The translations under genes and the position numbers were made by a program. Shown here in pieces: positions 53,682 to 59,504 of a stretch of DNA of 64,000 nucleotides. The notes beneath the pieces were generated by a model. It did no database searches and was not told the origin of the DNA. It saw only the letters and a list, made by a program, of their open reading frames with translations. The stretch is from positions 160,001-224,000 of the IMG/VR virus record IMGVR_UViG_3300002307_000018, one strand, 5' to 3'. The stretch's first letter is position 1. Each line of letters opens with the position of its first letter. The stretch is from a virus. Its lineage: Duplodnaviria; Caudoviricetes.

Positions 53682-53772
53682 TTGTTATATTGAAATACAC
53701 TATACGCTATACGGGTCTAGGTCACGTGGCACGTTAGACTTTCATTGCTTATAATGTACTTCAATATAACAA
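53682..53772 (-). ncRNA. Conserved-stem RNA unit A
   Basis: TTGTTATATTGAAGTACAT...GTGTATTTCAATATAACAA; fills the gap between tRNA-Lys and tRNA-CAT almost exactly. Confidence 0.6.
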
Positions 53773-53774
53773 CT

Positions 53775-53851
53775 TGGTAGGGGCACTGAGACTTAAACTC
53801 AGAACCTATCGGTTAAAAGCCGATTGCTCTAATCAGTTGAGCTATACCCCC
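53775..53851 (-). tRNA. tRNA-Lys(TTT) with A19/U56 elbow
   Basis: ATCGG-CTTTTAA-CCGAT, D-loop ..TGATT, T-loop TTTAAGT, CCA. Confidence 0.88.
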
Positions 53852-54169
53852 ATTGGGTCGTAATTGTGCATATCACTTGCACCCTTACGATCTGATACTT
53901 TTGTATTCCTGCGTTCCGTTTTGTACGGTTTACTATGTGAGCCAGCGCAACGTGCGGCGGCTAATCTAGCAAAACGATTACGAGGAACAATGGTTTTACC
54001 CTTTGTCTTCATTTTACTACTCCTTATCTTGGTTAATTTTACGACCGCTTTTGCGTGACTTCACGTCAACGGTAAACTTGATTTTCTTGCCATTGCCAGC
54101 CTGAACAACTCGGCAAGCGTGATAGCAACGCTTGGATCCGTAAGCTTTCATTTACATCTCCTATTGTAT

Positions 54170-54231
54170 GTACATATTATAGCACTATCGTGATTTATCG
54201 TCAAGCTTTATGTGTTGTATTTTTACAACAC
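54170..54231 (-). promoter_or_regulatory. Early promoter with TGTTG-N8-CAACA
   Basis: TTGACG-17-TATAAT; gtgttgtatttttacaacac at 54212-54231. Confidence 0.7.
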
Positions 54232-54238
54232 TGCTGAA

Positions 54239-54316
54239 TGGAGGCGCCGGTCAGATTCAAACTGACGGTTGTAGAGATTTGCAGTCACTTGCCTTGGGTC
54301 ACTCGGCCACAGCACC
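54239..54316 (-). tRNA. tRNA-Cys(GCA) with A19/U56 elbow
   Basis: Loop CTGCAAA, D-loop GAGTGACCCAA, T-loop TTTGAAT, discriminator U, CCA. Confidence 0.85.
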
Positions 54317-54318
54317 AT

Positions 54319-54413
54319 TGGTAGTAGATAAAGGATTCGAACCTTTCCGTTGCAGCCCATCTGACCACTCTCCCGAGGATATAAATCTCAGCCGCACACC
54401 AGTGCTATCTACC
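54319..54413 (-). tRNA. Atypical tRNA-like RNA, possible Ile(TAT)
   Basis: Acceptor GGTAGAT/ATCTACT, 4-nt D-loop, loop TTTATAT, about 25-nt extra arm, T-arm AAAGG-TTCGAAT-CCTTT, CCA. Confidence 0.55.
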
Positions 54414-54594
54414 ATTATTGAATTTGTAAGTAGATCCGCTCTCACTATCGGAACCATTTGAGGCTTTAATCAAGGGCGCCTGCCTGTCGAGAGTACGTTA
54501 CTAGGGAGATACTTGTTTGCTACTAGGCTAATTAGGCCCAACTCACCTTTATCTTGCGGAACAGGCTTTCTCTCTTGCTAACACTTACAAAACT

Positions 54595-54669
54595 TGGAGC
54601 GGGTAACAGGATTCGAACCTGCGACGAACAGCTTGGAAGGCTGACACTCTACCACTGAGTTATACCCGC
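54595..54669 (-). tRNA. tRNA-Gly(TCC)
   Basis: GCGGGTA/TACCCGC, loop CTTCCAA, CCA. Confidence 0.93.
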
Positions 54670-54677
54670 ATAAACTT

Positions 54678-54878
54678 TTACTCTACTGCTTTTGCAGCTT
54701 TGGCTTCTTTACGAGCCAGCTTTTCAGCAGTGATTTCGTTACGACGTACTTTGATTAGTTTCGCCAACTCAGCCAATGCCTTACGAGCCCGTGTACCTGC
54801 GGCACTATTGCCGCTGATAAACTTTGTATCTTCTTCTTGCCATACTTCAATTTGTTCGTTAATCTTTTTGATTGTCAT
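54678..54878 (-). CDS. Histone H1-like Hc1-family small protein
   Basis: KFISGNSAAGTRARKALAEL.K..K.RR.EI motif. Confidence 0.7.
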   Translation of the reverse strand: MTIKKINEQIEVWQEEDTKFISGNSAAGTRARKALAELAKLIKVRRNEITAEKLARKEAKAAKAVE

Positions 54879-54973
54879 GCTAATTCCTTTTAGAGTATCT
54901 ATTTACTGTCGCAGTGACAGTGTAAAATATAATTATACACTAGTGCTGATTTGTTGTCAACACATTCGGACAA

Positions 54974-56107
54974 TTATAAGTCACCTAGATAGTATGTGTT
55001 GGACTTGATCACCTTGAGATTGCCACCATCGTTGATATACTTTTTGTTGATACCGTGATAGAACCCTTGTTGATGATGCCGCCATATATCTTTTACTCGC
55101 TGATAGTCAGCGTACTCGTATATAAAGAAATCTCTGTCTTGTCTTAATCCACCTAAGTTTGGTTTGTCTGATTGAAATTTTCTTAAGTCCCACGTAGACG
55201 AATAGCAAACCAACTTAGATATCTCATGGTTGAACTTAGTAATTACATTGTCAGTTACGTTAGAACTTTTTGTCCACATATACTGTTGCAGATGTGGATT
55301 TGCTCGGTAGTAAAGATACACTTGATATGCCATTTCAAAGATCAAGTCGGGTAACTGTTCCGACCAGTAGAATGGTTCAAATGTTCCCACAGTATTGGTA
55401 GCATGAGACATAGGCACGTCAGTGAAAATCATTGACACTTGCCGATCGTTTAGCCATAACAGTGGTTTATCACTACCGTAAATGGTTGCTATAGTTTTGT
55501 CTTTGTTCAGTACAGTGAGTCCGACTTTTGAGAAGTCTAGATTTCTAGCCATTGGGCCCATACCATTGTTTGAGCCACCAGCGTTTAAGAATGTATCTTC
55601 ACTGCTAAAGTACTGCTCGTTTACATTGTCCATCCAGTTACTCAATTCAATATGAATACTAGGATGATTTTTTGCCACGTAATCTAACGTTGGCTTTATA
55701 CAGTAGTCCCACTCACTGATCATATTTCTAGATGTAGTGTCAGTGGTATTTGGTTTATGGTAAGACGAGTTAATGTAAGTGAATGGCTGATGCACAAAAA
55801 TCTGATCTAACTTGATATTGTTATCAAGAAATGCCAGTAATATGTTGTGACTGTCAGCACCACCTGAATAACTCAGTATCAGATAGTCGTATGTATCTCG
55901 TAGCTGTTGCGCTCGTTCACGATACAATGTTGTCAATGTTTGCTTACCCAATCTAGAACGATCAAAGTTCTTCCAAATACTGTCGTGCCATGACCATGTT
56001 ACTGGTGGGCAACCATTGTTACTAGCATACAGCAGTGCATTTCTTTTGTTTTGAAATGACTTTCCTGTTACAGTCCATGTGCCAAAGTAACCGTCATTGT
56101 GTGGCAT
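54974..56107 (-). CDS. PP-loop (adenine nucleotide alpha-hydrolase-like) protein
   Basis: LSYSGGADSHNIL, GSDKP and FEPFYWS motifs. Confidence 0.65.
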   Translation of the reverse strand: MPHNDGYFGTWTVTGKSFQNKRNALLYASNNGCPPVTWSWHDSIWKNFDRSRLGKQTLTTLYRERAQQLRDTYDYLILSYSGGADSHNILLAFLDNNIKLDQIFVHQPFTYINSSYHKPNTTDTTSRNMISEWDYCIKPTLDYVAKNHPSIHIELSNWMDNVNEQYFSSEDTFLNAGGSNNGMGPMARNLDFSKVGLTVLNKDKTIATIYGSDKPLLWLNDRQVSMIFTDVPMSHATNTVGTFEPFYWSEQLPDLIFEMAYQVYLYYRANPHLQQYMWTKSSNVTDNVITKFNHEISKLVCYSSTWDLRKFQSDKPNLGGLRQDRDFFIYEYADYQRVKDIWRHHQQGFYHGINKKYINDGGNLKVIKSNTYYLGDL

Positions 56108-58027: not shown

Positions 58028-58115
58028 CCATATTGAAATACACTATCGTGATTTGCGCCCCACCCGACACTTCCCGCCGGTACCGCTCTCTCCACGTTAA
58101 TGTACTTCGATATGG
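58028..58115 (-). ncRNA. Conserved-stem RNA unit F
   Basis: Same arms with one mismatch; GC-rich nested insert CGTG..CACG, CCGGC..GTCGG. Confidence 0.6.
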
Positions 58116-58256
58116 CAACTACCGTTCGACCAAGGGCGTGTGACCATTGCAGCCAAACAGTAGTTAATCCATTGCCTAGATTGTGCGTTTACATCTGCTA
58201 GGCGCAGGTGGTCAACCGTAGCACAATACGTCTTGTAGTACTGAGTACTTCAAAGG

Positions 58257-58341
58257 TGGTGGAGATTACTGGGATCGAACCAGTCGTGGGCAAGCCCGCC
58301 GGATTTACAGTCCAGTGCATCACCATTGATGCTTCATCTCC
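58257..58341 (-). tRNA. tRNA-Tyr(GTA)
   Basis: CTGGA-CTGTAAA-TCCGG, variable arm, CCA. Confidence 0.9.
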
Positions 58342-58555
58342 GAAACTTTTACTAAATTTCTGGCAGGGGTTTAACGAGATTATCTACCTGCCCAATCTCG
58401 ACATTACGGCGATTTTTCAGTCACGTGCCTTACTAGTCGCTATCTTATGTTCTTGAATTCGTGCCTCTCCTAGGGACTCTTACCCTACTGTTTCGTAACT
58501 GGCATGCCGCCCGGTGAGGCTCAGGTCGCAGTGCCTTCTTCTTTCAAGAATACTT

Positions 58556-58632
58556 TGGGGTGTAGAACGGGATTTGAACCCGCATCAGTCGGCTTCACAA
58601 CCCGAGGCTTTACCGATTAAGCTATCTACACC
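58556..58632 (-). tRNA. tRNA-His(GTG)
   Basis: Encoded G-1, discriminator C, loop TTGTGAA, CCA. Confidence 0.9.
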
Positions 58633-58734
58633 ATTGAAAAAACTGTAGTAAGTCAGGTGCCCATGTCCTAACATAGCGCCGATACAGGCGGGAGATATCA
58701 ATCTCAGTCGGGCAATACGTATCTCTACAAAACT

Positions 58735-58809
58735 TGGTACTGCATACGGGTTACGATCCCGTCTGGTCACCTTGAAAGGGTGATGACCTCACCAGAAGTC
58801 GAATGCAGC
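58735..58809 (-). tRNA. tRNA-Glu(TTC), second copy with A54/U58 T-loop
   Basis: TCACC-CTTTCAA-GGTGA, T-arm ACGGG-ATCGTAA-CCCGT, CCA. Confidence 0.85.
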
Positions 58810-58819
58810 ATTGAAAACT

Positions 58820-58895
58820 TGGCGCCGCTGATGGGGATCGAACCCACCTAAGTCTCGCAGACAACGAGTTACCCTCACCAGAAAGCTACAGCGGC
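58820..58895 (-). tRNA. tRNA-Asp(GTC), second atypical copy
   Basis: GCCGCTG/CAGCGGC, loop TTGTCTG with a pyrimidine at 37, CCA. Confidence 0.8.
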
Positions 58896-59040
58896 ATATT
58901 AGCGAATAAAATAACACACAGTGAAAAATACAATCAACCCATACAAAAATTGTAGTGATGTACGATGAATTTCTTTTACTGTGTCTTCTTCTGTTTGATA
59001 TTCTACTGTGTACATATTGTTTCCTTTGAAACTAGTACTT

Positions 59041-59150
59041 ATCATTATTGAACACACTACACGGGAATCGAACCCGCCTACACCGTAAATTAACACGCTG
59101 CTATGTCCATCACTCAGCGTGGCCTACGCCTTTATGTGTTCAATAATGAT
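59041..59150 (-). ncRNA. Conserved-stem RNA unit H with an internal tRNA T-arm
   Basis: Perfect 16-bp arms ATCATTATTGAACACA/TGTGTTCAATAATGAT; insert has CACGCTG/CAGCGTG and GCGGG-TTCGATT-CCCGT. Confidence 0.6.
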
Positions 59151-59231
59151 GACTCTTGGGGTGCTTCCCAGCAGGCCGATACTTCCCAGTATCATAGAGT
59201 CAACGTACTGCACTTATTGTGTATAATACAC

Positions 59232-59401
59232 AATATTGAAACTCACTGTCAGACCCCTTCCTAAGTGTATTGCGTCTGCTTGCTCACCTTCTGTTTTCTT
59301 GGCGTCTTGAGCGTATCATTTAAGACAGTACTGCGCTGAGCCACTTCAGGCCACGACTTACGTACTCCCTCAGCCAGTAACGGGCAATGAGTTTCAATAT
59401 T
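59232..59401 (-). ncRNA. Conserved-stem RNA unit I
   Basis: Perfect 14-bp arms AATATTGAAACTCA/TGAGTTTCAATATT around about 140 nt. Confidence 0.55.
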
Positions 59402-59409
59402 ATGTATGT

Positions 59410-59504
59410 TACGCAATATTGAAATACACTCTCGACGCCTGGTCCCGTTGCTGCGGCCCACTCGGCGGGACTTTGCGACTTTGAATGTACTTCAATATTG
59501 CGTA
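59410..59504 (-). ncRNA. Conserved-stem RNA unit J
   Basis: TACGCAATATTGAAGTACATT...AGTGTATTTCAATATTGCGTA; insert GTCCCG/CGGGAC; first unit after the promoter at 59540-59577. Confidence 0.6.

Follow-up and report, generated by a model that had tools for sequence, protein, structure and literature searches.

The transfer RNA (tRNA) arrays of phages are usually seen as tRNA sets for codon supply or anti-defence, and the spacers between their genes are ignored. Here, we analysed a window of 64,000 nucleotides (nt), bases 160001-224000 of the uncultured virus record IMGVR_UViG_3300002307_000018 (a large freshwater phage of the Caudoviricetes; genome of 264.6 kb, estimated to be 74% complete), in which such spacers house a large conserved RNA family: one closing stem, which we call the stalk, is combined with more than 100 different payloads, here termed cargos, and meets neighbouring tRNAs at base-exact junctions. 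Nine units of this family, designated A to H and J, lie between 53682 and 59504 on the minus strand, which also carries every one of the 27 tRNA genes of the window; the ARAGORN calls suggest a near-complete tRNA set. The stem is under selection at the RNA level and, by Rfam and literature searches, the element is an undescribed, widespread and phage-specific RNA architecture.

Stalk structure and distribution of the family

A preliminary description of the window, made from the letters alone, had listed nine small-RNA cassettes with a common closing stem, and all nine are confirmed by arm pairs, folds and a covariance model. The arms ATATTGAAGTACAT and GTGTATTTCAATAT form six exact pairs and three variant pairs (units D, G and H), a match count that was reached by none of 100 shuffles. 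A closing stem of 15-25 base pairs (bp) is predicted for each unit, with a minus-strand fold whose stability exceeds that of its plus-strand equivalent by 4 to 13 kcal/mol. The covariance model was trained on 42 units of the window and of other loci, each representing one cargo type, with D, G and H left out. It recovers all nine window units including the three untrained ones. The six canonical units score 17-22 bits higher on the minus strand than on the plus strand, and the variants D, G and H score 5-17 bits higher. A weaker unit suspected at about 58450-58550 was rejected as a family member, as the hairpin there gives no model match at E<=5 with filters off and has no homologue in related loci. 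A diverged tenth unit is located past the window end at window-equivalent position 65633-65712 (G000 225633-225712, minus strand; 25.5 bits, E 2e-4); outside the array and this unit, the motif was not found across the 264.6-kb genome. When a 986-nt tandem array was folded, all five of its stalks formed locally in the minimum free energy (MFE) and centroid structures (z = -8). Pairing of a 3' arm with the 5' arm of the next unit is possible on paper, but this register is absent from the MFE and centroid array fold, and the order 5' arm-cargo-3' arm is fixed by the existence of solitary units.

Across the family, the stalk is an uninterrupted helix of 17-22 bp with a length peak at 19-22 bp, about two helical turns, and follows the consensus (A)CC-AUAUURAA-RYACAU-U ... 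A-GUGURY-UUYAAUAU-GG(U), in which G.U and U.G wobbles are conserved. Among 76 distinct model-aligned units, pairing is kept in 95.8% of cells and double compensatory changes are present at 10 of 20 pairs; none of 500 shuffles attained the observed covariation values, and the signal was lost when the partner was slid by one to three columns. Covariation of both outer and inner arms, as first proposed from the nine units of the window, is thus borne out. In the 215 distinct units of the pooled set described below, pair 9 is occupied by G.U (100), A-U (92) or G-C (20), pair 14 by U.G (154), C-G (41) or U-A (16), and pair 6 by G-C (128) or A-U (70), with both forms of the latter found in 16 loci. 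Pairs 1-5, 7 and 8 are almost invariant, which is partly an ascertainment effect since the searches demanded most of the core. CC/GG flanks occur in about 161 of the 215 stalks, and first-in-operon units such as J have GCA/TGC. In the diverged units G and H, pairing is preserved via compensatory changes and sequence is not.

Units were then oriented solely by the majority strand of neighbouring tRNAs, without consulting the stalk itself. In this orientation, the non-Watson-Crick cells comprise 391 G.U against 37 A.C. Of the first 183 units, 162 lie within 3 kb of a tRNA, and 156 of these are on the majority tRNA strand. This bias together with the fixed orientation indicates that selection acts on the transcript, and the proposal of a strand-specific fold at the RNA level is upheld.

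Could the arms nevertheless act mainly as DNA, as recombination or mobility sites that shuffle inserts among tRNA spacers in the manner of miniature inverted-repeat transposable elements (MITEs) or by cassette exchange? Identical arms would favour recombination, and cargo and site are indeed uncoupled, as one spacer holds different cargos in different phages: the spacer from tRNA-Lys to tRNA-Met contains an A-type cargo in the window and a tRNA-like cargo in the related loci L021 and L038, and the A-type cargo occupies other contexts elsewhere. However, the flanks are inverted complements without direct target-site duplications, the unit interiors are mutually unrelated, and there is no linked transposase or integrase. 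Since the excess of G.U over A.C and the orientation on the tRNA strand also speak against it, we regard a DNA-level function as very unlikely, although cassette swapping may occur as a side effect. A MITE or terminal-inverted-repeat transposon was likewise rejected, as the flanks are complementary rather than direct repeats and the interiors, sorted by sequence, make up about 144 unrelated clusters.

Searches with the covariance model and with sequence patterns place the family in phage and metagenome sequence. Pattern scans for paired arms yielded 32 stretches in other IMG/VR contigs and 27 in contigs of JGI metagenomes; five contigs binned into freshwater metagenome-assembled genomes (MAGs) also match and are plainly phage-like tRNA arrays. 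A scan for a variant with an A-U core added 52 further loci, 50 of them within dense tRNA arrays. Pooling yields 101 loci with 261 units (215 distinct), and every locus contains tRNA genes. DNA runs containing the element stem mostly from freshwater and lake metagenomes, and those listed include no RNA library. The A-U core is the form found in a cultured lake phage, Synechococcus phage BUCT-ZZ01 (ON615601.1), in which the covariance model detects units at 117243-117373, 123165-123302, 123299-123393 and 128717-128831, on the tRNA strand, abutting tRNAs and with the core G-C pair replaced by A-U; BLAST against 50,697 GenBank phages gave no match, and BUCT-ZZ01 emerged only with the covariance model.

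The exact arms are absent from 185,579 species genomes. A looser pattern returned MAG-binned phage-like contigs and poorly paired, tRNA-distant matches in Thiobacillus, Dyadobacter and other genomes, which we take to be chance. A bacterial chromosomal origin was dismissed, as no genuine bacterial chromosome carries the element in the scans made. At the gathering threshold, Rfam 15 matches only tRNAs in the window, at E<=10 nothing credible overlaps a unit between 53300 and 59900, and in nine related loci the database reports only tRNA, transfer-messenger RNA (tmRNA) and one group I intron. A full-text search found the motif in no paper of the searched literature, and the text of a large catalogue of candidate structured RNAs from IMG/VR has no description of the architecture. 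The initial impression that the layout belongs to no described family is thus sustained.

Several other RNA features were observed in the related loci. L032 contains a permuted tmRNA at 8258-8602 (minus strand; Betaproteobacteria-type match, 92.8 bits), and in BUCT-ZZ01 a predicted permuted tmRNA (116861-117279) has its start within the 3' arm of the stalk unit directly upstream. The hypothetical protein UTS52133.1 of the same phage (117163-117357) overlaps a stalk unit at 117243-117373 and is probably a mis-called open reading frame (ORF) over non-coding RNA (ncRNA). The group I intron match in L008 (189-441, minus strand; 49.3 bits against a gathering score of 50) is situated beside tRNA-Leu in a tRNA array.

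Operon context and cargos

The units are small RNA genes that are read on the tRNA strand inside long non-coding operons of tRNAs and ncRNAs. In the window, this operon is headed by a sigma-70-type promoter at 59548-59576 (minus strand; TTGACA-17 nt-TATAAT, 12 of 12 consensus positions), followed by the rrn-type boxA-like sequence GCTCTTTAACAA at 59509-59520, an exact 12-mer upstream of unit J (59410-59504), 8 nt from the conserved 5' arm and 4 nt from the extended stem. The same promoter-leader arrangement before the first stalk is kept in L017, L025, L027, L035 and L041, and a boxA, identical or with one mismatch, precedes first-in-array stalks in six related loci. The role of boxA in Nus-dependent antitermination of rrn operons is established (PMC10250234). 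Both the promoter upstream of unit J and delivery of the units from the tRNA operon had been anticipated in the preliminary description. An intrinsic terminator as the nature of the element was rejected: no terminator-like site was found on the minus strand in 53000-60200, and the 3' arms are followed by GGU rather than by a U tract.

At the borders of the units, stalk and tRNA are joined to the base. Where a tRNA is located within 12 nt upstream (n=57), the first base of the stalk coincides with the terminal A of the tRNA CCA in 49 cases; where one is located within 12 nt downstream (n=45), it follows the stalk with zero gap in 17. Unit A (53682-53772) fills its tRNA-tRNA spacer almost completely, as had been noticed before, with a gap of 2 nt to tRNA-Lys (53775-53851) and of 1 nt to tRNA-Met (53603-53680). 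A targeted search for RNA libraries turned up a single metatranscriptome plus two possible RNA runs, with small shares. Short low-depth contigs of a relative from such libraries cover 57655-57811, i.e. the spacer between units E and D with its flanking arms, and 57808-57912 in unit E; they are at most compatible with transcription.

In contrast to the stalk, which is nearly constant, the cargos of the 215 distinct units are 27-186 nt long and form about 144 sequence clusters, 111 of which are singletons, and paralogous units of one genome combine the same arms with unrelated cargos. The picture of unrelated, structured and non-coding inserts under a single stem is thereby extended from one array to the family. 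A T-loop motif is present in 33 of the 215 cargos (about 15%). The largest cargo cluster is tRNA-like: a T arm adjoins the 3' arm of the stalk and is accompanied by a class-II-like D-loop segment and a variable hairpin. It includes unit G, the insert in which a tRNA T arm had already been recognised. In L034, cargo plus inner stalk of the unit at 2619-2713 reach a tRNA score of 31.4 bits, the seven inner pairs of the stalk taking the place of the acceptor stem; no unit interior of the window reaches E<=10 with the tRNA model RF00005.

Many cargos are conserved far beyond their genomic surroundings. Compensatory changes are found in cargo helices: the cargo family of unit A, which recurs in six further loci, has them at three pairs, spread over two hairpins. 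Cargos and RNAs located between stalks are 77-99% identical between loci, compared to 0.33-0.67 at four-fold sites and 31-79% for proteins of the same loci. For instance, the cargo of unit B is 94% identical to that of L032, where four-fold sites are 33% and shared proteins 43% identical; the cargo of unit A is 77% identical to those of L017 and L008; and the RNA between units E and D (57667-57788) is 93% identical to its counterpart in L017 over 122 nt, though shared proteins are 31% identical. With synonymous sites near saturation, such identity argues that the cargos are functional RNAs rather than neutral filler. Judged from these comparisons, the conservation would reflect either strong purifying selection or movement of cassettes between phages.

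These values bear on the notion that only the stalk matters, as a spacer or processing module between tRNAs, and that the inserts are tolerated filler and partly decayed tRNAs. The extreme diversity of the cargos, the T-loop remnants, the one cargo that scores as a tRNA and the exact junctions of stalk and tRNA would all fit. But filler explains neither the identity of cargos and inter-stalk RNAs at near-saturated four-fold sites nor the compensatory changes within cargo helices, and a tetraloop in place of the long cargos would suffice for a pure processing stem. We thus consider this notion unlikely.

Guide RNAs, a role that the preliminary description had listed among its suggestions, fare worse. 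As in CRISPR and TIGR arrays, which are processed from a long precursor, constant and variable segments are arrayed here in a phage genome (those arrays occur in phage or prokaryote genomes), and the inserts of CRISPR-, TIGR- or bridge-RNA-like systems would hold the targeting sequence. CRISPR arrays alternate fixed-length direct repeats with unique spacers that hardly vary in length. In TIGR-Tas arrays, regular units of some 36 nt bear box C/D motifs, and a Tas gene with a Nop domain accompanies them (PMC12045711). In the stalk arrays, the constant parts are inverted rather than direct repeats, the inserts are very unequal in length, internally folded and conserved across phages, and neither a 36-nt periodicity nor box C/D motifs of the TIGR type were found. 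Neither Nop (PF01798) nor RVT_1, the reverse transcriptase (RT) family, has a match in the genome; cas genes were not searched for. Complementarity of the cargos within their own phage genome does not rise above that of shuffled controls. A guide function is therefore hardly credible. Retron msr-msd elements, in which an ncRNA flanked by inverted repeats adjoins an RT gene, were rejected on the missing RVT_1 match.

The combination of a closing stem with variable modules also brings to mind Y RNAs of the YrlA type, which would bind host Ro60 or Rsr by their stem. YrlA and YrlB RNAs likewise have a closing stem, variable modules, several RNAs per stem and in part tRNA-like domains with a T arm (PMC4201824), and the G-type cargo resembles YrlA in its T arm and D-loop-like segment (PMC4201824). 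This domain is found in the G-type cargo and in none of the remaining eight window units, and 85% of all cargos are not tRNA-like. The Ro-binding helix contains a bulge and a conserved GNCGAAN0-1G or GGUCCGA-like motif (PMC4201824), whereas the stalk is uninterrupted and its consensus AUAUURAAR lacks the Ro motif, AUCGAAG being present in unit F alone. No YrlA or Y RNA model of Rfam matches even at E<=10, and no TROVE gene (PF05731) was found in the genome or in five records of related viruses, including a 95% complete one. A Y RNA-like identity hence seems highly improbable.

A proposed mechanism and its competitors

But, why should phages enclose so many unrelated RNAs in one and the same stem? 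We infer that the stem may be a processing or protein-loading element, as had been suggested before; overall, the observations of the preliminary description were confirmed and extended, and its interpretation is partly supported. In more specific terms, we tentatively favour, with somewhat less than even confidence, an analogy to ribosomal RNA (rRNA): the stalk would be a leader-trailer helix that defines the excision of diverse small RNAs and stabilises them. Helices of this kind, formed by leader and trailer of rRNA downstream of boxA, are a known precedent (PMC10250234). Both systems share a long helix built from the flanks of a structured RNA, about two turns long in the phages, and a promoter with boxA in front of a long untranslated operon that includes tRNAs (PMC10250234). 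They differ in that one short, near-constant stalk is reused here for more than 100 unrelated cargos of 27-186 nt, in that units stand in tandem with the stalk fused to tRNA ends base by base, and in that cleavage by RNase III is here a proposal.

Following this analogy, the arms would pair co-transcriptionally under antitermination by Nus factors and hold the ends of the insert together, as the leader-trailer helix of rRNA does. Host RNase III would probably cut the two-turn helix near its middle; in the 22-bp stalk, a conserved G.U pair is found roughly mid-helix. At stalks that abut tRNAs, RNase P and the enzymes of tRNA 3'-end maturation would cut at the helix base. The AU-rich outer half could then melt off the neighbouring tRNAs and be trimmed back to the upstream CCA, and what is left, the inner half, would clamp a discrete small RNA and resist nucleases. 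The payload would be the insert and not the stalk. Our guess is that payloads mimic or decoy tRNAs and other host RNAs during infection; it builds on the tRNA-like cargos, the co-expression with a tRNA set and the adjacent operon for RNA healing and sealing.

Several observations weigh against the leader-trailer analogy. RNase III is indifferent to sequence, yet seven of the eight outer pairs are near-invariant and two wobbles are conserved, which hints at a more specific reader. Some units adjoin each other without an intervening tRNA, e.g. J and H, which lie 8 nt apart, and tRNA enzymes alone thus cannot release all units. The phage genome contains no gene for TROVE, RtcB, RNase III, Nop, RT or proteins with a double-stranded RNA-binding domain; as no partner of a known type is encoded, any reader of the stalk would have to come from the host or be a phage protein that escaped recognition. 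Finally, support from RNA libraries consists of few short contigs of low depth, which possibly represent DNA carry-over.

The hint of a specific reader leads to a second account, in which the stalk is a sequence-specific handle for a dedicated phage or host protein that loads, cuts or assembles all cargos into one kind of particle, with excision being secondary. It would parallel CRISPR repeats and Cas6 or the Y RNA stem and Ro60, and agrees with the near invariance of pairs 1-5, 7 and 8, with the wobbles at pair 14 (154 of 215 units) and pair 9 (100 of 215) and with the identical arms of paralogues that differ in cargo. The invariance is, however, in part owed to the search design, pair 6 may freely be either G-C or A-U, and a single contig can hold both forms, the diverged units G and H conserve pairing but not sequence, and no candidate partner of known RNA-binding type is encoded. 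We regard the protein handle as possible but doubtful.

A recurrent neighbour was considered as such a partner and dropped. The gene of the RNase H-like protein DUF458/YkuK (PF04308, phrog_11311) borders the tRNA region at 41684-42187 (minus strand). The protein has counterparts in 11 related loci and is the most recurrent one in the vicinity of the arrays, but other large phages rich in tRNAs commonly encode it too. The closest of these, Stenotrophomonas phage DLP_6, also encodes it within a tRNA array, and a scan of DLP_6 for stalks found none. This nuclease family thus seems to be linked to phage tRNA arrays in general and not to stalks.

In a wider formulation, the units would form a new class of phage RNA system: the universal stalk might be a cassette for expression, processing and recognition with swappable payloads, which would serve large phages as a shifting library of structured decoys or aptamers against host factors such as tRNA-directed defences and would be exchanged among phages by recombination via the identical arms. 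We offer this as a conceivable scheme in which our confidence is low.

Small non-tRNA products of phage tRNA clusters have precedents. Species 1 and 2 of phage T4 (rnaC and rnaD) are small stable RNAs without assigned function, which are co-transcribed with the phage tRNAs and released by tRNA-processing enzymes. They resemble the stalk units in being small non-tRNA RNAs of a phage tRNA cluster, but each is a single gene, the two have no reusable closing stem in common, and no relationship to stalk units was found by sequence or model. In mitochondrial tRNA punctuation, in the tRNA-miRNA (microRNA) units of gammaherpesvirus 68 and in engineered tRNA scaffolds, tRNAs supply exact cleavage sites, and the coincidence of the CCA end with the first stalk base in 49 of 57 cases is of the same kind. 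Unlike these systems, the units have a conserved stalk of their own, and many of them are free of tRNAs on one or both sides.

If the stalk proves to be a handle for processing and stability, it would represent a natural compact device that releases many small RNAs from one transcript and could be useful in RNA engineering. Payloads acting as decoys or mimics would add an RNA layer to phage counter-defence, and a cassette with swappable payloads would be an RNA counterpart of islands of protein-coding anti-defence genes. With BUCT-ZZ01 as a cultured carrier, the handle and decoy ideas are directly testable.

Unit features and neighbouring genes

All features of the array are given here in the order of transcription on the minus strand. 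Unit J, the first after promoter and boxA, has a 55-nt cargo and a 22-bp stem (61.5 bits, E about 1e-12 for 59410-59504), and its outer arms read ACGCA/TGCGT instead of CC/GG. Unit H (59232-59401; model match 59227-59406, 37.5 bits although untrained) combines the variant stalk GAAACTCAT / GTGAGTTTC, whose inner arm shows two double compensatory changes, with a 140-nt cargo. The RNA segment between H and G (59151-59231) is 76-89% identical in L037, L021, L017 and L027. Unit G (59041-59150) has the diverged stalk ATTATTGAACACAT / TGTGTTCAATAAT and matches the model weakly (E about 0.01-0.04, 59039-59152); its tRNA-like cargo with T arm and D-loop-like segment aligns with 12 units from other loci that have canonical stalks.

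3' of unit G, a small ORF at 58899-59015 (minus strand, ATG at 59015) encodes a short peptide that is apparently hydrophobic by eye. A GTG-started version of this frame (58899-59096, 65 amino acids (aa)) overlaps unit G, is located between the ncRNA units and the next tRNAs and has tblastn matches in L013, L020 and L025. The spacer of tRNA-His and tRNA-Tyr (58342-58449, minus strand) houses a stalk-free conserved non-coding RNA that is 90-93% identical in seven related loci. Upstream of unit F, a conserved 21-nt piece of the form AATGGTCACACGCCCTTG is found at 58135-58155 (minus strand); pieces of this form occur a few tens of bases 5' of certain stalks in about 14 related loci.

The units from F to B are separated by conserved RNA segments, which all end in NCCA; a T arm together with an acceptor-like stem makes two of these tRNA-like, and the four segments are 81-94% identical in other phages. 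Unit F (58028-58115; model match 58024-58119, 59.9 bits) has the variant stalk ATATCGAAG and a 56-nt cargo. The segment between F and E (57916-58027) contains a T arm and its ACCA end overlaps the first bases of unit E; relaxed ARAGORN settings call it a tRNA with a 37-nt insert, and it is 84-94% identical across six loci. The 89-nt cargo of unit E (57789-57915; model match 57788-57916, 65.6 bits) is 91% identical to that of L037. It is followed by the E-D segment, which ends in GCCA, and by unit D (57546-57666; model match 57542-57669, 41.2 bits although untrained), in which the variant stalk GAAGCACAA / GAGTGTTTC encloses an 88-nt multi-hairpin cargo that is 98.9% identical to that of L011. 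The D-C segment (57451-57545) ends in ACCA and is 89% identical to L030. Unit C (57378-57450; model match 57375-57453, 64.1 bits) is the smallest, with a 39-nt cargo on a 22-bp stem. The tRNA-like C-B segment (57272-57377) has a T arm, ends in ACCA and contains the acceptor-like GGTAATCAC/GTGATGACC; it is matched by relaxed ARAGORN and is 81-84% identical in L021 and L038. Unit B (57156-57271; model match 57153-57274, 65.2 bits) has an 82-nt cargo and is followed by tRNA-Asp 14 nt downstream. Unit A (model match 53681-53773, 64.8 bits) holds a 53-nt cargo of two hairpins.

Inside the tRNA region, an ORF of 377 aa at 54974-56107 (minus strand) contains an SGGxDS motif, which is PP-loop-like, and has no sequence match in Pfam, PHROG, NCBIfam or PDB. 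The operon for RNA healing and sealing (49561-51580, minus strand) adjoins the tRNA/ncRNA region and encodes a T4 Rnl1-type RNA ligase (49561-50613), a polynucleotide-kinase-like P-loop protein (50543-50962) and a calcineurin-type phosphoesterase (50972-51580) that recurs near stalk arrays in 13 related loci.

The window also contains host-like genes for a Gram-negative porin (Porin_4; 15874-17058), a CHASE2-adenylate/guanylate cyclase (22071-24125), a FecR-like protein (24912-26048), NAMPT/NAPRTase (38050-39546), an Hc1 histone-like protein (54678-54878) and a TctC-family binding protein (56094-56969). The porin gene points to a Gram-negative host, which, judging from porin, TctC protein and the beta-type tmRNA of L032, is possibly betaproteobacterial.

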